A stretch of 8,741 nucleotides of DNA, taken from positions 1-8,741 of the forward strand of contig JBHLKY010000054.1 of assembly GCA_048886185.1 (NCBI GenBank). Reading direction: 5' to 3'. Source of the stretch: Candidatus Hermodarchaeota archaeon (GTDB taxonomy: Archaea; Asgardarchaeota; Heimdallarchaeia; Hodarchaeales; Hodarchaeaceae). How positions within the stretch are numbered: the stretch's first letter is position 1; the number at the start of each line of letters is the position of its first letter. Position numbers and translations under genes: made by a program. Below, one piece after another: positions 1 to 8,122 of the stretch. The notes beneath the pieces are model-generated. The model had not been told where the DNA came from. It made no database searches and was given only the letters and a program-made list of their open reading frames with translations.

Positions 1-245
1 TTCGTGGGCGAACTTCTCCACTTAGGAGTTAAGCTCTGCTTCCTACTGTTTGGATTGGAGAGTACTTGGGAGTTTTAAGATGGCTACAAATAATGAGGGT
101 ACCAAGAGAGATTCCGTGCAGTTGATAAATCTACCACTATTGTCATTAATGTTTGCTCACATAACAATGTAAAATTCCCTCGTGTGAATTGAAAAACCAG
201 TATTTTAATTTGAATAAATTCTCGCGAAACATTTTAAAGTGATAG

Positions 246-444: not shown

Positions 445-1836
445 ATGAATAACCAAGAAGAAAAACTAATACATAAGACTAGATGGAATAGTAGAAGATT
501 TCTCCTTTTGTATTGGTTCGCTTTCGTTTTCATTGGGACAGCCGCAGCAGCTGGTTTAGGAACAAGTGTATTAAATCCTAAATTACACCTTAATGAAGTG
601 GATCACAGCTCACTCAACTTACCGAGTGAATGGGCTCCAGAAGACTGTATGGGTTCCATGTGTCACAATGATACGGTCGCCTCTTGGAATGAGACAGGTC
701 ATTCAAAAGCCGGTAAACTTTTATCAAATGGTTCATGGCTTGTAGGAGACGATCATATCTACAATGATACCTTTTTCCGTTCTTGTTACGGAGGCGATGA
801 AGCATTAATTCAATGCCATACTACTCGTTACAACGAAACAGATGGGACCTACTGGACTGGAACTGATGGTGTTAGCTGTGCAGCTTGTCATGAAGAACCA
901 GGCACAATAGATTATGCAGCTGATAGCTGTCAAAGTTGTCACGAATATTCTAGCAATAATATAACTGGAGACTATCAGATGAGTGCACACAGCGGATCAT
1001 ACGAGGATTTATTAGCAGGTGGTTATGCTCCTAGCTATTGTATGCACTGTATGACTGGACAAGGTATGTATATGGATGTGACAGGTAAAGAAGATTTTTT
1101 GACTTCGATCAACTGTGGAACTTGTCATGATCCTCATGATGCAACTAATACAGCCCAACTCAGAGAAGCCGAGGTTATTGACCTCTGTGGGACTTGTCAT
1201 ACTGTTGAAGTATTCGAAGATTCTAGTAATAAACACTTAGCTTACGTAGATGAAGGATGTGTTTCGTGTCATGGTTACCAATTGGATCCCAAACCCTGGA
1301 ATCCCAACAATGCTCGTATAAACCATACTTGGGAAATTAATTTCGAAGATGCCTGCGGACAATGCCACACGGGACAAGTCGATGCACGAAAAGAAATGTT
1401 AGAAAATATTCATGGTGACTATGAAACTTTGAATGCCACATACCATACTCAGGTCGCAAATGTCACTGCTAAAGTTGATGAAGCAAATGGTACAGCTGGA
1501 GTGGATCTGTGCACAATCGAAGATGCTTATGCTTTGATAGAGGAAGCTGAAGAACTAATTAGTCTACTTGAACATGACGCAAGTCGTGGGTTCCATAATC
1601 CCACAATGATGGAAGATAACTTTGCACTAGCTCTAACCAAACTAAACGAGGCTTACGCTAAAGCTGAGGCTGCTATTGACGGTGAATCACCTGGTACAAC
1701 CAGTATAACTGGTACTACTAGTACTAGTAGTAGTAGTACTAGTAAGGCAGCTAGTACGCCAGGGTACCAATTTTTCGCTGTTTTGGTAGCTATTAGCATC
1801 GTATCAACTGTCTTAATCTATAGAAAGAGACGCTAA
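445..1836 (+). CDS. Cell-surface multiheme c-type cytochrome (up to 9 hemes) of the NrfA/HAO/OcwA structural superfamily, with signal peptide and PGY-TM-basic C-terminal anchor
   Basis: Canonical CxxCH at 877-891, 928-942, 1114-1128, 1186-1200, 1258-1272 and 1354-1368. Non-canonical CMGSMCH (646-666), CYGGDEALIQCH (784-819) and CMHCM (1039-1053). The last hemes are followed by a long helical region with DASRGFHNP (1576-1602), matching the DGSxGxHNP motif of cytochrome c552/NrfA-type C-termini. Hydrophobic N-terminal signal (FLLLYWFAFVFIGTAAAAG), Ser/Thr linker and TPGY-TM-RKRR tail. ATG at 445 is preferred over the track's GTG at 415, but the start is uncertain. Confidence 0.92.
   Translation: MNNQEEKLIHKTRWNSRRFLLLYWFAFVFIGTAAAAGLGTSVLNPKLHLNEVDHSSLNLPSEWAPEDCMGSMCHNDTVASWNETGHSKAGKLLSNGSWLVGDDHIYNDTFFRSCYGGDEALIQCHTTRYNETDGTYWTGTDGVSCAACHEEPGTIDYAADSCQSCHEYSSNNITGDYQMSAHSGSYEDLLAGGYAPSYCMHCMTGQGMYMDVTGKEDFLTSINCGTCHDPHDATNTAQLREAEVIDLCGTCHTVEVFEDSSNKHLAYVDEGCVSCHGYQLDPKPWNPNNARINHTWEINFEDACGQCHTGQVDARKEMLENIHGDYETLNATYHTQVANVTAKVDEANGTAGVDLCTIEDAYALIEEAEELISLLEHDASRGFHNPTMMEDNFALALTKLNEAYAKAEAAIDGESPGTTSITGTTSTSSSSTSKAASTPGYQFFAVLVAISIVSTVLIYRKRR
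1714..1743 (+). repeat. ACT/AGT trinucleotide low-complexity repeat encoding the Thr/Ser linker (TTSTSSSSTS)
   Basis: Read directly: actactagtactagtagtagtagtactagt. Contains most of a perfect 20-bp palindrome at 1713-1732. Confidence 0.85.
1759..1836 (+). other. PGF-CTERM-like (PGY) protein-sorting signal of the cytochrome
   Basis: PGYQFFAVLVAISIVSTVLIYRKRR-stop after a Ser/Thr linker has the motif + TM helix + basic cluster layout of archaeosortase substrates. The sortase itself is not in the window. Confidence 0.75.
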
Positions 1837-1871
1837 ATAGTTGGTTAATTCCATCTCAAGGAAGCAAAGCA

Positions 1872-1907
1872 ATAACAGCACTGTTGCTGTTATCTTTACC
1901 TTTTTTT
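1872..1907 (+). terminator. Probable terminator downstream of the cytochrome gene (stem-loop plus T-tract)
   Basis: ATAACAGCA-ctgt-TGCTGTTAT (perfect 9-bp stem, 1872-1893) followed by ctttaccTTTTTTT (T7 at 1901-1907), starting 35 nt after the stop codon. Confidence 0.6.
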
Positions 1908-2072
1908 CCAGTACTGTGGGGAAAGAGAAAGGTCTCGTTGTAAAACATGAGTTTGTCGAGACAAGCTTAGATGAAATGATCCTCTAAGATTGAATTGGTT
2001 ATTCATTAGTATACCGCCATATATTACGATCGAATTGATACCCCTTTCAGAAAAAATGAGATGATTTAATAA

Positions 2073-4241
2073 ATGCGAAAAAGTTTATTTACACCCTTTA
2101 AGCCTACTCAACGGCTAAAATATCTATTCATCCCTTTACTAGTGTTACTCATAATCGCTCCAATTATGATGGACTCTCCAATCACTAATAAAGTGTTGGA
2201 TTTGGAAGAGTCTCAAAAACTCACTTCTGATATTTCTCCTAAAGTAAGTAACCACAAACAAGACAGTAATCCTGAAGCATATTTTCCAAATTTTCTTTAT
2301 TATTCAATTTCCTTGGCAGATACTCTAATTGATTACTTATATGACGATGAATCTGGTGGGTTCTTCCGCTCTGTTAATCAGTTCTGGTCTAATGATACCA
2401 TTAATAAGTTGAAGTATTCTTACGATCAAGCTCAAGCTATTCTTGCATTACTGAAGCTTTCTGATGCTGTAATTAATGAATCTGAGCGTGATCTTGCACT
2501 TCATTATGCTCAACTGACTGGTAACTACATGATTACACACCTATATGACGATACATTTGGAGGATTCTATACTTATTCTGGAAGTTCATATAAAAAACCT
2601 GGAGTTAATGGTAAGGTCATCCTTTCTCTCTTGTCTCTTTTCAAGACTACTGGCAATAGTACTTATAGAGATAAAGCCATTGAAGCTTTTGAGTTTATTG
2701 ACAAATTTGGTTGGGATAGTAATAGTGGGGGGTATGTTTACTTATTATCCCACACGGGTATTGTTGCTTCTTCTAATCCCAGTTCAACGGATCCTTATGA
2801 TCCTCAATCAAAAAAAGTGGATCATAATGTGATTATGGGGGAAGCTATACTAGATCTTTACCAGTTAAATTCTGATTCTAAATATCTTTCTAGAGCAATC
2901 GAAATTTATAAATTGATCAACACCTCTTCTAGAGATCCTACAACTGGTTTATTCTATATTGGGTTCAATAGTGATGGAATTGTTGAACCAGATTATACTG
3001 ACATTTTTATCAATTCTCTTGTGCTTGAATTCCTTTCCCAGCTGTATAATGCTACTGATAATAGTGTATATTTTAATGATTTTCAATCTCTAATAAACGC
3101 TGTTCTTTTGAATTTTTGGGATTCTTCCCATGGAGGGCTGTATGCAACACATCCGTATAATAGTCAAGTTGAGAGAGATGATAAAAAATATACAGAAAGA
3201 CAGTTTTATGCAATTAGAGCTCTTGATGAAGCCTACAAACTGACTAACAATAACCTGTATTATAATATAATTCTTGATATTATGGAATTTCTCAATAATA
3301 ATCTTTATGATAATATTCATGGGGGATATTATCTTTTGACAAATGCTGATGGCAGGGAAGGAGATCAAAACTGGAAGGACAAATATTCTGTTACTCAATC
3401 CTTGGCCATGTATGAACTAGCTAATCTCTGGTTATATAGTAAGCCTAGTGTTCTTAATGCTATCTGGTCGCCTTTAAATCCTAGACCAACGGATAATGTT
3501 ACTATTAGAATTGCAGCTTTCGATGCAGATGGTCTTTCCAATGTATTGTTGAATTATTCTATGAACAACCAGCCGTACAAATTAATGGAAATGTCATCTA
3601 ATGATCTAATAGGAAATATGTTCGAAATTATTCTTAATTCTCAACCACATGGAACAACAGTCAATTTTAACATCGTAGTTAATGATACCTTAGGAAACGT
3701 TATAGTGCGAGAATCGTATTTCTTTGTTTGGGAGGTTGATGTGTTACCTCCTCATGTTATGTTATTAGGGGTAGATCCAAGTAATAAGATTCTTGTCAAT
3801 ACTAATTTTAGTATAACTGTGAGTGTACATGATAATCCTACCCAAGGAGATGTTACGAGTACCCGTATGTACTATAAAGAAATAAGTCAATCAAAATGGG
3901 AGTCTAGAGCATTATTTCGAGTCGGAGATTACTTATGGAGGATTGAATTTCCAGATGGTCTCGAAAAACCAAATAATTATGTCTATTTCTTTGAAGCTAT
4001 TGATAATCGTGGGAATTTTGGATTTAGCTCTAATTTTTACTTGGAAATTCAGGATCAGCCAGAAAATTTCCCCTTAACCGCATTTGTAGGTACACTTTTT
4101 TTCATATTATTTATTGTTCCTGGATGCATTATTGTTTTCAAAGAATACGACAAAAATAAAGCTCGTACAACTCTAAAAAACATTAAGAAGACACGTAGCG
4201 CGGCACGGAGGAAAAAGAGAGGGACAAAGCGTATAACGTAA
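2073..4241 (+). CDS. Membrane-anchored extracellular (alpha/alpha)6-toroid protein (AGE-epimerase/YyaL-SSP411-like six-hairpin fold) with two Ig-like domains, C-terminal TM helix and basic cytoplasmic tail
   Basis: N-terminal hydrophobic segment (LFIPLLVLLIIAPIMM). Six repeats YDDESGGFF, YDDTFGGFY, WDSNSGGYV, RDPTTGLFY, WDSSHGGLY and YDNIHGGYY (2340-3332). Two beta-rich repeats (IRIAAFDADGLSNVLLNY; ITVSVHDNPTQGDVTSTRMYY). TM FVGTLFFILFIVPGCIIVF and a Lys/Arg-rich tail. At least 8 N-x-S/T sequons. Fold assignment is by motif recognition; function is unknown. Confidence 0.75.
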   Translation: MRKSLFTPFKPTQRLKYLFIPLLVLLIIAPIMMDSPITNKVLDLEESQKLTSDISPKVSNHKQDSNPEAYFPNFLYYSISLADTLIDYLYDDESGGFFRSVNQFWSNDTINKLKYSYDQAQAILALLKLSDAVINESERDLALHYAQLTGNYMITHLYDDTFGGFYTYSGSSYKKPGVNGKVILSLLSLFKTTGNSTYRDKAIEAFEFIDKFGWDSNSGGYVYLLSHTGIVASSNPSSTDPYDPQSKKVDHNVIMGEAILDLYQLNSDSKYLSRAIEIYKLINTSSRDPTTGLFYIGFNSDGIVEPDYTDIFINSLVLEFLSQLYNATDNSVYFNDFQSLINAVLLNFWDSSHGGLYATHPYNSQVERDDKKYTERQFYAIRALDEAYKLTNNNLYYNIILDIMEFLNNNLYDNIHGGYYLLTNADGREGDQNWKDKYSVTQSLAMYELANLWLYSKPSVLNAIWSPLNPRPTDNVTIRIAAFDADGLSNVLLNYSMNNQPYKLMEMSSNDLIGNMFEIILNSQPHGTTVNFNIVVNDTLGNVIVRESYFFVWEVDVLPPHVMLLGVDPSNKILVNTNFSITVSVHDNPTQGDVTSTRMYYKEISQSKWESRALFRVGDYLWRIEFPDGLEKPNNYVYFFEAIDNRGNFGFSSNFYLEIQDQPENFPLTAFVGTLFFILFIVPGCIIVFKEYDKNKARTTLKNIKKTRSAARRKKRGTKRIT

Positions 4242-4258
4242 CGTATGGAGATATAATA

Positions 4259-6487
4259 ATGATTTATATTGATTTTGGAGCTTTTGGGATGGATTTAGGC
4301 ATGTTACTATTACTTTTTGGTTTGACTGCCCTTTTGTTTGATGTTTTTTTAGTGATCTATGGAGGGTACATTGAAAAGTGGGAAATTTATTCAGAAATAT
4401 GTCTTTCTGCTAGTATTGTGGCTATTATTGTATCCTTCATGTATTTCAGTTATTCAATCATAATAGCTGATTATAGCTTTACCTACGTGAGTGATCATAT
4501 AAATAACAACATGGACTTTTTCTTAAGACTATCAGCCATTTGGTCTGGACAGTCTGGGTCATATTTCTTTTGGGCATTTTTGGTTGCAATAATTTATTTA
4601 ATCTTCAGAGTGATGTTCAGAGAGTACGCGCATGAAACCATTTACTGGCGAGCGTTTGTACTGTCAGCTCTTCAGGTAGCTGTTTTAGTGGCCCTAACAC
4701 TTCTAAGTGATCCGTTTAAATTAAATGATAACCTGGTTTCTGATGGTATTGGATTAAATCCCTTATTAATGACTTATTGGAATCTCATTCACCCTCCAGT
4801 TATTTTCATTGGATATGCTCTATGTTTAATTCCAATGGTCATTGGAATAACAAGAATTTCTATCCTTAAAGATGGCAAAGTTCCAGACTTTGAAGGTAAA
4901 GAAAAATTGGATGCACTCTTTGAATTTATGGTTTCATTGGCATGGCTCGTTTTAAGCTTTGGAATAATAATTGGTGCTTATTGGGCTTATGTCACTCTCG
5001 GTTGGGGTGGTTTCTGGGCATGGGATCCCGTGGAAACTGCTTCATTGATACCTTGGCTCTTTATAACACTTTATTTTCATGGAAAACCATTCTTTGGAAA
5101 AAGTAAATACTTTGCAGATTATATTGTGAGCATGAGCTACATTAGCGCATTGTTTGCCACGTATTTGACAAGAAGTAATATAATTTCAAGTGTACACACA
5201 TTTCAACCAGAAGCAACCTTAGAGAATATTCTTAAACATTTTATCCCAAAAAATAGTTTTCTTATGACCATTATCTTGCGATTCATTCCTGATGAAAGGA
5301 TGTTATTACTTTTCATCGTCATATTAATCACTTTTTTCATTCCACATCTTTTTGGAATTAGGAATAAGGAAATAACAAAGATTCCCCTCTCTTTTGAAAG
5401 AAAAGATCTACAAGGATCTAGATCTGGTATAACTGCATTAAAAGTTTCCTTCATTTCAGGTCTTTTAGGTTCTTATGTTATCATCATTGGTTTAATTGCT
5501 CCAGTCATCTATGATATTATTGGTTATGTGATCACTTTTAGTCCAGAAGGATTTGGTTCAAGCATTATTATAGACCAATTGTTCTTTAATACAGTCATAA
5601 CGATTTTTGGAGGAATTATGTTACTCGCGCAATTTTTCTGCACTTTCTATCCAAGATTAGATGTTAAGAAGAAGCTTGGATTAATGATAAGTGGATTGAT
5701 CGCAGGAATCACATTTTCAGTAGGTGGAATGTTTTATAGAAATGGTTTCCTTGATCAGTTTCTGGGAGAAAAAAATCCACTACTTGTATTATTTAGTAAC
5801 TTCTGGACGACTAGTGACAAAGCAAACCTAATTATTCCTCTTCTATTTCTGGGAGTAGTTGGATTATTGGCGGAATTCATAAACGTGGCATTTAATGAAG
5901 AGAAAAATCTTATCAGGAAAACATCTCAGATACTGTTGCATCTTTCTTTCTTAGTCATTCTTTTTGGTGCATTAATGAGTGCCAATATGACTGTTTCTAG
6001 TCAAATCTTGGTTCAAGAAGGGCGTGAATATCAAATTCAAGGCTCCTCTGTAACAATTACTATTGTGGATTTAGATCAAAGATTCCCCGAATCAGGATTT
6101 AATATTGTAGAATATGATACACAATTCATGTTGTCATCTGGTGCGCGAGTTATTGGATTTGGAATCAGTAGGCTCGCTTATGATAAGGTGAATCGAATGG
6201 ATCATGAGGTAACGATAATTAGTGACCTCTTTTCCAATATTTACATAGTTACTACTGGAGTTTTCGAGAACTCGCTCTCTGGTATCTTTGAGGGTAGTTT
6301 ACTCCAAATTAAAATCATCCCATATATCAATATATTATGGGCTGGATGTATCTTCCTCCTTTTTGCAATTCTTCCTTTGACCGTAGGGAGGTTTATTACT
6401 CTAAAAAAGACTTTTTCATTAAGAGAAATAGAACAAAAAGAAATGAAGACTGAAATAGTATTAAGTGAGAGTGTAATAAATGATTAG
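4259..6487 (+). CDS. ccmF: Cytochrome c synthase / heme lyase CcmF (System I cytochrome c maturation)
   Basis: WWD motif WGGFWAWDPVET (5003-5038), GLNPLL..IHPP (4751-4798), YFH after the WWD domain, TRSNIISSVHTF and a late TM His (LLHLSF). These correspond to the four conserved CcmF histidines. Highly hydrophobic polytopic protein. GGAG lies 8 nt upstream of both ATG 4259 and the alternative ATG 4289. Confidence 0.95.
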   Translation: MIYIDFGAFGMDLGMLLLLFGLTALLFDVFLVIYGGYIEKWEIYSEICLSASIVAIIVSFMYFSYSIIIADYSFTYVSDHINNNMDFFLRLSAIWSGQSGSYFFWAFLVAIIYLIFRVMFREYAHETIYWRAFVLSALQVAVLVALTLLSDPFKLNDNLVSDGIGLNPLLMTYWNLIHPPVIFIGYALCLIPMVIGITRISILKDGKVPDFEGKEKLDALFEFMVSLAWLVLSFGIIIGAYWAYVTLGWGGFWAWDPVETASLIPWLFITLYFHGKPFFGKSKYFADYIVSMSYISALFATYLTRSNIISSVHTFQPEATLENILKHFIPKNSFLMTIILRFIPDERMLLLFIVILITFFIPHLFGIRNKEITKIPLSFERKDLQGSRSGITALKVSFISGLLGSYVIIIGLIAPVIYDIIGYVITFSPEGFGSSIIIDQLFFNTVITIFGGIMLLAQFFCTFYPRLDVKKKLGLMISGLIAGITFSVGGMFYRNGFLDQFLGEKNPLLVLFSNFWTTSDKANLIIPLLFLGVVGLLAEFINVAFNEEKNLIRKTSQILLHLSFLVILFGALMSANMTVSSQILVQEGREYQIQGSSVTITIVDLDQRFPESGFNIVEYDTQFMLSSGARVIGFGISRLAYDKVNRMDHEVTIISDLFSNIYIVTTGVFENSLSGIFEGSLLQIKIIPYINILWAGCIFLLFAILPLTVGRFITLKKTFSLREIEQKEMKTEIVLSESVIND

Positions 6488-6543
6488 ATCCGAAAACCTG
6501 TCGAAGTACGAAGAGGGAGACCCTTTGTTGTACAAGAATATCA

Positions 6544-7059
6544 ATGAATAATATAGAGATGAACATAAAAATGAGAAATCAATCAAAGAAAATTAAATCA
6601 GTTGATGAAAATCTTGAATGGGATACAGAATTTCAACACTTCCTAAAGGAATGGTTCTCTGGGCTTATAGCTGGAATTGAAAAACTAAATGATGATATAT
6701 GGCCCAAAGTTTTAGAATTAACTGGTCGTGCTTGTGCACATGTCCATTCTAATGAATTGTTTTGGGAAACATGGGAAGCTACCCGAAAACTTGATGAATT
6801 CCTAAAGAAAATTAATGAAATATATGGAGAGAAAGTCTTCGAGATAATCGATGATAATACAATATCAGTATTTTATTCTAAGTGTACTTGCCCATTAGTT
6901 GAACACGGATTAGTAGACTCACCTCTCCTATGTAATTGTTCTCCTAGCTGGTTAGCTGAGAATTTTGAATCCATTCTACAAAAGCCTGTAACAGTAACGA
7001 CCAAAAAAACGATTTTACAAGGAGCTAAAAGCTGTAATTTCATTATTTCATGGGAATAA
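6544..7059 (+). CDS. Small soluble Cys-rich V4R-like protein (resembles DUF6144 family), probable metal-binding
   Basis: Pattern GRACA ... KCTCP ... LCNCS ... FESILQKPVTV..TILQGAKSCNF (six Cys at 6733, 6883, 6889, 6931, 6937 and 7033). The C-terminal G..C.F is typical of V4R-type folds. No signal peptide. The start could be 6544, 6559 or 6571. Family name is from recall, not a search. Confidence 0.65.
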   Translation: MNNIEMNIKMRNQSKKIKSVDENLEWDTEFQHFLKEWFSGLIAGIEKLNDDIWPKVLELTGRACAHVHSNELFWETWEATRKLDEFLKKINEIYGEKVFEIIDDNTISVFYSKCTCPLVEHGLVDSPLLCNCSPSWLAENFESILQKPVTVTTKKTILQGAKSCNFIISWE

Positions 7060-7155: not shown

Positions 7156-7974
7156 TTAAAGAACAGGTTCCAAAATTATTACTGTACAATTTGCTTTTTC
7201 TTGAAAGTCTTTGACCTCATTTAAATTTCCAATGGTCATATTACCTATAGTTACAGGATATGTGTAATGCATTGGAATAACATACTGTAAGTCTGATAAG
7301 ACTTGAAGAGATCCGACTGCTTCAGCTCCTTCTTCATCTGACATTAATCCAGTTCCCAATATAGGAAGAAAAGCTATATCGCAATCAATTTGTGTCATTT
7401 CAGGAATATGGGCCGTGTCTCCAGCATGGTATATTCTTACATTCCCAAAATCGACAATTACTCCCGTCCAATTGGCATCACGGGGATGACTATCATCATA
7501 AGCAGGCACAAATTCGAGAGTAATTCCAGATTCTTCTTTATGATCCCAAGGTTTGGTATAGCAGATTGTTTTGACTTCTAAGGACTCAATCTCTTCGAGA
7601 TCGGTCCCATATTGATCTACTTGTGCTGGTTTAGGAGTATAAAGGGTGGTGTTAATGTCAGCAATAATGCTGATATCAGATGGATAGAGATGGTCATAAT
7701 GGTCATGAGTAGCAATCACAATGTCTGCCCTTTCAGCACCACTTGGAAGGAGATACGGATCAATATAGACCACTAAATCACTTGTTTTGAGTTTAAAAGC
7801 TGCAAATCCATGCCAAGTTATATTAACTCCATCATAATAAAGGAAATTCTTCTCAACAATAATTTCTGGCTGCTCTTCGGTATCATTATCATTTGGCACT
7901 AAAATAAACGCTATAGCAACTAGTAAAACAAAAAATACAGCTCCAACTATTCCTACAGCTAAATACTTATTCAC
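7156..7974 (-). CDS. MBL-fold (metallo-beta-lactamase superfamily, UlaG/Lactamase_B_3-like) metallohydrolase with N-terminal membrane anchor
   Basis: Motifs TWHGFAAF, YIDPY, THDHYDH (HxHxDH, 7690-7710), SH, YHAGDT, DIAFLPI and VIPMHY. N-terminal TM YLAVGIVGAVFFVLLVAIAFILV. The reading frame is open to TTG 8061 (track), but GTG 7974 or TTG 7977 fits better: AGGAAG lies upstream and the TTG at 8061 falls inside the divergent promoter. Confidence 0.88.
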   Translation of the reverse strand: MNKYLAVGIVGAVFFVLLVAIAFILVPNDNDTEEQPEIIVEKNFLYYDGVNITWHGFAAFKLKTSDLVVYIDPYLLPSGAERADIVIATHDHYDHLYPSDISIIADINTTLYTPKPAQVDQYGTDLEEIESLEVKTICYTKPWDHKEESGITLEFVPAYDDSHPRDANWTGVIVDFGNVRIYHAGDTAHIPEMTQIDCDIAFLPILGTGLMSDEEGAEAVGSLQVLSDLQYVIPMHYTYPVTIGNMTIGNLNEVKDFQEKANCTVIILEPVL

Positions 7975-8042
7975 CAAATTGAACTTCTTCCTTTTATGCT
8001 TAGTAAGCTGATCCAAAAGAATTAAACGAATTTTTCCATCTT

Positions 8043-8122
8043 GATTTAAATATATTTCCAAAACTTGGAACGATGAAAAATATGGAAATATATTTATAAT
8101 AATCCCTCCGTATTTGGAACGA
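8043..8122. promoter_or_regulatory. Divergent promoter region with mirrored BRE/TATA elements and TTGGAA repeats
   Basis: 14-bp perfect inverted repeat TAAATATATTTCCA (8047-8060) / TGGAAATATATTTA (8083-8096). TTTATAAT at 8093-8100 (+) and TTTAAATC at 8050-8043 (-). TTCCAA-aac-TTGGAA (8056-8070). TTGGAACGA direct repeat at 8065-8073 and 8114-8122. Confidence 0.6.

Follow-up and report, generated by a model that had tools for sequence, protein, structure and literature searches.

The window analysed here, an entire contig of 8741 bp (C54) from a Hodarchaeales metagenome-assembled genome (MAG; G000, 4.84 Mb, 96% complete, 4.96% estimated contamination), carries four co-oriented genes coding for a multiheme c-type cytochrome, a membrane-anchored protein with a toroid and immunoglobulin (Ig)-like domains, the System I heme lyase CcmF and a protein with six cysteines. 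An earlier note had taken this CcmF to be a paralogue specialised for two unusual heme motifs of the cytochrome, CxxCM and/or CX9CH. Our analysis supports another reading, which we consider fairly likely: the genome has two copies of a cytochrome and maturation module, of which the window carries the second and partly reduced one, the window CcmF is a facultative duplicate rather than a motif-specialised enzyme, and the toroid and six-Cys proteins are the constant partners of the cytochrome. The full module would be confined to one Hodarchaeales genus and would run from the cytochrome gene to toroid-ccmF-ccmE-ccmC and then to ccmA-ccmB.

The cytochrome gene (positions 445-1836, + strand, 463 aa) was recognised through Pfam multiheme families and a profile match to the nine-heme cytochrome OcwA. 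Its start was set at the ATG at 445, where the family consensus begins, rather than at the GTG at 415, and a terminator-like hairpin followed by a T-rich tail (1872-1893, +) lies 36 nt past its stop codon. The next genes, also on the + strand, code for the toroid/Ig protein (2073-4241, 722 aa; Pfam GlcNAc_2-epim, AlphaFold2 (AF2) model and Foldseek), for CcmF (4259-6487, 742 aa; PF01578 and PF16327), which is the genome's second copy, and for a cytoplasmic, DUF6144/MetOD1-like six-Cys protein (6544-7059, 171 aa; Atlas features and structure). The layout given in the earlier note, with co-oriented genes, gaps of 17 nt (toroid-ccmF) and 56 nt (ccmF-six-Cys) and three non-standard heme motifs, was present in full in the open reading frames (ORFs) of the window. 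The second gap becomes 83 nt if the six-Cys ORF begins at Met10 (6571), its probable start, as in the orthologue of the related genome G008 and in the ESM Atlas record.

As had been noted, ccmA, ccmB, ccmC and ccmE are absent from the window. The CcmE and CcmC models matched contig C1 alone in the genome, with ccmA and ccmB adjoining there. On C1, paralogous cytochrome and toroid genes lie upstream of a second ccmF, which is followed by ccmE, ccmC, ccmA and ccmB. Between window and C1, the CcmFs are 63% identical, the toroids 46% and the cytochromes 36%. A second ccmF with ccmBCE, for which the earlier note had proposed to look, does exist, but not as the generic housekeeping copy that it envisaged, since it follows a toroid and a cytochrome that is itself atypical, carrying CX4CH and, at site 2, a vicinal CCM, and lacking site 5. 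Because ccmE-C-A-B lie on C1, the window cluster would have to borrow CcmABCE: its CcmF would receive heme from the C1-encoded proteins, its own ccmE having been deleted.

Archaeal System I occurs as a variant with CcmABCEF, no CcmH and a CcmE carrying CxxxY. The C1 genes resemble this variant, as ccmF-E-C-A-B is complete, CcmE ends in CPSKY (CxxxY type) and no CcmH (PF03918) was found in the genome; the gene set is present in the genome, on C1, and not in the window. The difference is that a gene for a toroid/Ig protein with the fold of the AGE superfamily heads the ccmFEC unit here at every locus examined, and our literature searches found no description of such a protein as a System I component. 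In an all-ORF scan of G000 only two ORFs, the window and C1 cytochromes, had two or more CxxCH motifs, and no class-I cytochrome c domain (PF00034) was found in the genome. For these reasons the Ccm system, complete in this Hodarchaeales genus, seems in G000 to exist for one cytochrome family only, a surface nine-heme OcwA-like family. Physiology papers on Cox-possessing Heimdallarchaeia report that class-I cytochrome c, cytochrome f and a blue-copper carrier were not found, or mention only ccdA and qcr genes. For Hodarchaeales, nothing specific on Ccm or on multiheme cytochromes turned up in our literature searches.

The synteny analysis covered 21 further species from the GTDB genus of G000, for which all comparison genomes except two are MAGs in pieces. 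CcmF was present in 17 of the 21 species, and the four genomes without it also lacked the cytochrome and the toroid. Conservation of gene order, which the earlier note had called for, was observed in all 17 genomes with ccm genes: every fetched locus covering the region upstream of a window-type ccmF had the order cytochrome-toroid-ccmF-ccmE, usually continued by ccmC-ccmA-ccmB. The closed genome G010 showed the standard order, with one copy of each gene found. The cytochrome-toroid spacer is 236 nt in the window and 87-283 nt in the family (mostly about 230-280 nt, 87 nt in one locus), the toroid-ccmF gap ranged from -1 to 19 nt in 13 loci, ccmF and ccmE overlap in most loci, and about 185-270 nt precede ccmA. 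This spacing suggests three units, namely the cytochrome gene, toroid-ccmF-ccmE-ccmC and ccmA-ccmB. CcmF alone is more widespread in Asgard archaea (87 of 400 genomes).

The window-type cluster was found in several states. On contig C50 of G008 it reads cytochrome-toroid-ccmF-ccmE-six-Cys and lies 16 kb from a complete second module on the same contig. The window itself reads cytochrome-toroid-ccmF-six-Cys and has lost the ccmE that its G008 orthologue retains. In G017 (contig C183, cluster G017a) the order is cytochrome-toroid-six-Cys, with the toroid and six-Cys genes abutting and one ccmF found in the genome, and in L053, a 30-kb metagenome contig, it is six-Cys-cytochrome-toroid with ccmF absent. 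The fifth contig of the series, L054, has kept ccmF. The heme-2 site of these window-type cytochromes, which carry CX4CH and CxxCM, is CX9CH in G017 and CX3CH in L053. CxxCM cytochromes without a linked ccmF paralogue, named in the earlier note as an observation that would speak against its proposal, are therefore found in G017 (C183) and L053, and most CxxCM cytochromes of the genus are served by a single CcmF (e.g., in G010, G014 and G001). In relatives, a single CcmF or one encoded elsewhere would thus mature cytochromes of this kind.

Other arrangements were also seen in the genus. The G021b cytochrome gene (L052 = G021 C1, 8289-9776), the second of this family in G021, is opposite in strand to the neighbouring ccmC-A-B and has neither a toroid gene nor a ccmF next to it; the whole G021 genome yielded a single gene of each. 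The single-contig genome G015 (L028, L029 and L030) is rearranged: one ccmF stands behind cytochrome and toroid genes, another ccmF, full-length and separate, precedes an ORF only partly similar to ccmE, and a 214-aa C-terminal ccmF fragment lies ahead of ccmE-C-A-B. Besides a standard cytochrome-toroid-ccmF-ccmE module, G016 has a divergent CcmF (L035 = G016 C16, 8969-10990, - strand; 37-45% identity) a few kb from ccmC-A-B and a ccmE, with an identity to the window CcmF at the level of the CcmFs of other Asgard families. In L053 (13437-19337), the cytochrome-toroid pair is directly followed by Hdr/Mvh-type genes, coding for an HdrD-like CCG protein, an HdrA-like protein and MvhD/FlpD, and by those for both subunits, small and large, of a NiFe hydrogenase; these neighbours hint at a possible electron source.

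The window CcmF has the hallmarks of the CcmF/NrfE heme lyase family. It scored 92.7 bits for PF01578 (threshold 29.9) and 29.6 for PF16327 (threshold 28.7), its WWD motif WGGFWAWDPVE aligns to Thermus thermophilus CcmF (6ZMQ), and H178, H274, H313 and H561 are conserved across 21 aligned CcmFs (H561 in 20 of 21). In this family two of the four functional His flank the WWD domain and two lie in TM helices; H561 would correspond to TM-His2. The NrfE model TIGR03145 gave 151.5 against a cut-off of 927.3, so that the protein does not qualify as an NrfE-type dedicated lyase. With a dN/dS of 0.15 against the G008 orthologue (0.14-0.17 for all four window genes), the window ccmF is intact and under purifying selection, and its product is probably a functional heme lyase, perhaps kept for dosage or kinetic preference.

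The phylogeny of CcmF is decoupled from that of its neighbours. In the cytochrome and toroid trees the window clade groups with G019a and G006 (support 99/98 and 100/100), whereas in the CcmF tree, another check proposed in the earlier note, the window copy groups with the main CcmFs of G008, G017 and G003 (96/94), unlike its cytochrome. In approximately unbiased (AU) tests each data set rejected the topology of the other (p 0.0008 and 0.005). By sliding-window identity, the window ccmF seems to be G008b/G017-like in its centre and G019a-like at its C-terminal end, a pattern suggesting that resident ccmF paralogues recombined; the window gene appears to have exchanged sequence with the other ccmF of its genome lineage. 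Such recombination would hardly persist had the paralogues diverged in function, and it therefore counts against specialisation. Among the positions that are near-invariant in other CcmFs, none was changed in the window clade, and no fixed window-type differences were found. The toroid, and in the window clade the six-Cys protein, would be the components that travel and co-diverge with the cytochrome.

A conserved N-terminal tail and transmembrane (TM) helix precede the heme domain of the cytochrome, and a C-terminal three-helix bundle, a Ser/Thr linker and a Loki-CTERM-type signal follow it. The Loki-CTERM model NF033507, for a sorting signal made up of a C-terminal PGF-like motif, a TM helix and a basic tail, was passed marginally (20.7 against a cut-off of 19.9), and the Heimdall-CTERM model stayed below its cut-off (18 against 24). 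With 2.2 N-glycosylation sequons per 100 aa, the protein exceeds the 95th percentile of its genome. Based on the N-terminal tail and TM helix, the sequon density and the C-terminal sorting signal, the cytochrome is probably a surface-anchored, N-glycosylated glycoprotein. Pfam matches comprised multiheme families and PF02335 over residues 271-411 (28.5 bits). The AF2 model (predicted local distance difference test (pLDDT) of 64, below 50 around the CxxCM site, helices at residues 312-412) was too poor for a fold search, and profile alignment was therefore used. The best PDB match of the family profile (42 homologues) was OcwA (6I5B, E 2e-27), followed by MccA, octaheme nitrite reductases and NrfA. 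A phmmer search of the PDB with the single sequence did not find OcwA and gave a weak MtrA-like match, in which CMHCM stands opposite a CxxCH. On the profile evidence the cytochrome is a member of the OcwA/NrfA superfamily.

OcwA of Thermincola potens belongs to the NrfA/c554/MccA superfamily and acts as a terminal reductase with nine hemes at the cell surface. Its hemes 2 and 5 are its two pentacoordinate, solvent-exposed hemes, with heme 2 equivalent to the active site of c554 and MccA and heme 5 to NrfA heme 1 (PMC6703420). The window cytochrome shares with it nine motifs that correspond one to one in order, an NrfA-like C-terminal three-helix bundle, a cell-surface location (here predicted from sequence) and the special character of positions 2 and 5. 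It differs in having CX9CH and CxxCM where OcwA has CxxCH with the proximal His, and in having residues other than His, by profile alignment, at the positions of the distal His-His motifs above hemes 2 and 5 of OcwA. It also differs in its archaeal host, in its N- and C-terminal membrane or sorting segments and in a similarity that is undetectable from the single sequence. An identity as NrfA, which is pentaheme with CxxCK at heme 1, was considered and rejected, as there are nine motifs here, CxxCM occupies the equivalent site and CxxCK occurs in only two homologues. NCBI lists these proteins as "ammonia-forming nitrite reductase c552", a name that is likewise unjustified, because the match covers only the C-terminal helices. 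The cytochrome and toroid families turned up almost only under Hodarchaeales-type names, and public near-identical proteins are labelled Hodarchaeales, Hodarchaeota or Promethearchaeota. The OcwA-like surface cytochrome suggests that these archaea carry out redox reactions at or outside the cell surface.

Nine Cys-pair motifs are present in the window cytochrome, six of them CxxCH. The other three are the heme-1 site CMGSMCH (CX4CH, 646-666, +), the heme-2 site CX9CH (C114...C124-H125, 784-819, +) and the heme-5 site CMHCM (CxxCM, residues 199-203, 1039-1053, +). CX9CH lies opposite CAGCH at the OcwA heme-2 position, and CxxCM opposite CLKCH at the position of OcwA heme 5 and NrfA heme 1. These motifs are not chance occurrences, since C68, C73 and H74 of site 1 and C124 of site 2 are invariant in the 42-member alignment and C[LM]HCM[STA]G occupies site 5 in most members. 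Across the family, the site 1 spacer has 1, 2, 4 or 9 residues. At site 2 the upstream Cys stands 0, 2, 3, 8 or 9 residues from C124 and the next residue is H, M, K, R or F, which gives CxHCM, CCH, CCM, CX3/8/9CH and CxxC[RFK]. Site 5 reads CLHCK or CM[VP]CV in a few members and is lost in one subclade, which includes the C1 paralogue. At the other seven sites the Cys pair and the His are invariant, with spacers varying at sites 1 and 4 only. As the variation is concentrated at sites 2 and 5, the odd motifs are best described, at the alignment level, as a family-wide remodelling of two catalytic-type hemes and not as a quirk of the window gene. Heme would be attached at both CX9CH and CxxCM, with Met as a putative axial ligand. 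The family thus provides natural variation (H, M, K, R, F and V) at the proximal position of two catalytic hemes; our literature searches did not find a natural CxxCM heme-c site, and a full-text search gave CXXCM as an engineered mutant only.

Some further regularities were seen among the homologues. Sites 2 and 5 covary in some of them, CxxCR occurring with CxxCK and CxxCF with CxxCV, and one has CxxCK at site 2 (all among P0020, P0022, P0023, P0035 and P0036). In Met-ending motifs, at both special sites, a His usually stands directly before the second Cys (CxHCM).

In the toroid/Ig protein, an (alpha/alpha)6 barrel of AGE-superfamily type and two beta-sandwich domains lie between an N-terminal and a C-terminal TM helix, the latter followed by a basic tail. 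Pfam GlcNAc_2-epim matched it at 4e-12, and its AF2 model (pLDDT 82) was matched by Foldseek to glucose and cellobiose 2-epimerases with target-normalised TM-scores of 0.73-0.83 and a probability of 1.0 (8H1L, E 8.5e-24), in agreement with an AGE-type (alpha/alpha)6 fold. This barrel is shared with the AGE superfamily (GlcNAc, cellobiose and glucose 2-epimerases; YihS) and GH76, from which the toroid differs in being 14-20% identical, extracytoplasmic, anchored by two TM helices and equipped with two Ig-like domains. Hidden Markov model (HMM) alignments to solved AGE enzymes were repeat-shifted and out of register, and the catalytic His pair was not mappable. A CcmH-like thiol-redox role is unlikely, because the only Cys of the protein sits in a TM helix. 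The family occurs solely with this cytochrome, in Hodarchaeales. Its gene is translationally coupled to ccmF where ccmF is present, co-diverges with the cytochrome and stays with it when ccmF is lost, making the toroid the best candidate for a cytochrome-specific accessory, which may assist maturation as a chaperone at the Ccm machinery or serve as a partner with a surface- or glycan-related role. A complex prediction for the two ectodomains (toroid 66-665 with cytochrome 48-420) scored 0.01; it gave no verdict and was not used as evidence either way. This strictly co-occurring, uncharacterised protein at the head of a ccm operon is worth following, as are the natural CxxCM, the variable-ligand sites at the two catalytic heme positions and the presence in Hodarchaeales of a dedicated system for a c-type cytochrome.

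The six-Cys protein contains exactly six Cys and no signal or TM segment. It resembles DUF6144 clusters in Atlas features (score 0.94) and in structure (TM-score 0.84), and it scored 16.7 for Pfam MetOD1 (PF18546), below the threshold of 23.8. Its orthologues accompany the window-type cytochrome genes of G008, G017 and L053 regardless of the presence of ccmF. Because heme ligation happens outside the membrane and the protein is cytoplasmic, a regulatory or sensory role appears more likely than one in ligation. In G008 and G017 a divergently oriented gene for a helix-turn-helix (HTH)-MetOD1 regulator lies upstream of the window-type cytochrome (L026 4047-4736 and L051 7582-8286, both - strand). 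The pairwise similarity of the six-Cys protein to the G008 regulator is marginal (E 0.09).

In the reading of the earlier note, the window CcmF is a dedicated lyase for CxxCM and/or CX9CH, analogous to NrfE, and the C1 CcmF handles ordinary CxxCH. The presence of two ccmF genes in the genome, the other with ccmECAB, fits this reading, as do the intact state of the window ccmF under purifying selection and the fact that in G000 only the window cytochrome has CxxCM, the C1 cytochrome being without the site. There are also precedents in NrfE and in CcmF2 of anaerobic methanotrophic archaea (ANME), which adjoins MHC-B and shows that in archaea a CcmF paralogue can be linked to a particular multiheme cytochrome. 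We nevertheless regard a dedicated lyase as improbable in view of the CxxCM cytochromes with a single CcmF in G010, G014, G001 and others, the window-type cytochromes without an adjacent ccmF, the conflict between the CcmF and cytochrome trees, the lack of clade-specific substitutions, the low NrfE score and the failure to find NrfF or CcmH. The analogy with nrfA-nrfEFG, also drawn in the earlier note, stands as far as it concerns linkage: here, as in nrfA-nrfEFG and ANME CcmF2/MHC-B, a CcmF-family gene lies beside a multiheme cytochrome with non-CxxCH motifs, in genomes with more than one CcmF. It breaks down in that the linked CcmF of Hodarchaeales is often the only one of its genome, is dispensable at the locus in relatives and does not co-diverge with its substrate, and NrfF, NrfG and CcmH were not found. 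In annotation, a specialised lyase should not be deduced from the additional ccmF. Several points weigh against the facultative duplicate that we favour. The window ccmF is under purifying selection and has been kept in at least three lineages (window, G008a and L054), which fits a non-redundant role such as dosage or cognate-substrate preference. The only CcmF found in G017 falls in the clade nearest to the window CcmF, which would be compatible with a specialisation shared by a wider clade. Since the comparison MAGs are in pieces, a second ccmF may lie elsewhere in the G017 or L053 organism. Heme occupancy and ligation at CxxCM and CX9CH are read from sequence, in a region where the AF2 model is poor. 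Finally, C54 is a short contig of a MAG with about 5% contamination, tied to its genome by GC content, genus-level synteny and an overlap with contig C42.

The last two points bear on other explanations. If the atypical sites were heme-free, the cytochrome would have seven hemes, CxxCM and CX9CH would be relics or serve another role such as a disulfide or metal site, and no special maturation would be needed. The F or V that follows the second Cys in some homologues and is unable to ligate iron, the loss of site 5 in one subclade, the spacerless CC at site 2 and an AF2 model that is uninformative in this region all agree with this. We find it rather unlikely, however, as the Cys pairs are strongly conserved exactly at the OcwA heme 2 and 5 positions, some members have CxxCK or CxxCH there, both known heme motifs, and loss of heme 2 or 5 would break the nine-heme chain described for OcwA. 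A more far-reaching alternative is a new System I variant, in which the toroid would handle the apocytochrome in place of CcmH, CcmI or NrfG and CcmF would then hemylate His-less sites (CxxCM, CCH, CCM and CxxC[KRFV]). We put this forward tentatively, as a possibility that we doubt; mature surface cytochromes would then carry c-hemes with Met or no proximal motif ligand at both catalytic positions. That C54 derives from another co-binned Hodarchaeales population, through a binning or assembly artefact, is highly improbable. Its short length (8.7 kb), the contamination estimate and the location in G000 of the window-type cluster and its G008/G017 flanking regulator pair on different contigs would allow it. 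The GC content, however, is the same as that of the genome (35.3% for C54, 35.2% for G000), there is an exact 77-bp end overlap with C42 of the same assembly, both module types occur on one G008 contig, and G019 and G017 have two cytochrome-toroid pairs each.

In the overlap, window positions 1-77 match the opening 77 bases of C42 (16.1 kb) exactly, in reverse complement, which looks like an assembly-graph k-mer overlap. When a join of the two contigs was checked, the genes flanking the cluster in G008 were absent from C42. The G000 homologue of the HTH-MetOD1 regulator, 80% identical, lies at C1:23886-24563 beside the same 301-aa neighbour gene, and this pair is on C1 and not on C42; either the G000 cluster has apparently lost its linkage to the regulator or the assembly breaks there. 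Downstream of the six-Cys gene, the window codes for a metallo-beta-lactamase (MBL)-fold hydrolase with an N-terminal TM segment (7156-8061, - strand; PF13483) and a winged-helix (TrmB/MarR-like) HTH regulator that runs off the contig end (8128-8739, +). Neither gene was found at the orthologous clusters of G008 and G017. C42 opens with an MBL-fold gene paralogous to the one in the window. A sigma-70 promoter scan gave 39 matches against 35.5 expected and is uninformative in an archaeal host.

A heme island surrounds the ccm clusters (L005 = G000 C1:1-20000; G000 C1:45387-46727; L026 13797-19018). It includes a UbiA-family gene, probably for heme O synthase, genes for an FTR1-type iron permease and a DUF438/hemerythrin/PAS protein, and genes for conserved membrane proteins of 527, 221-234 and 244-255 aa without a Pfam match. 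COX1 lies about 30 kb away, and the gene order of the island is inverted between G000 and G008.

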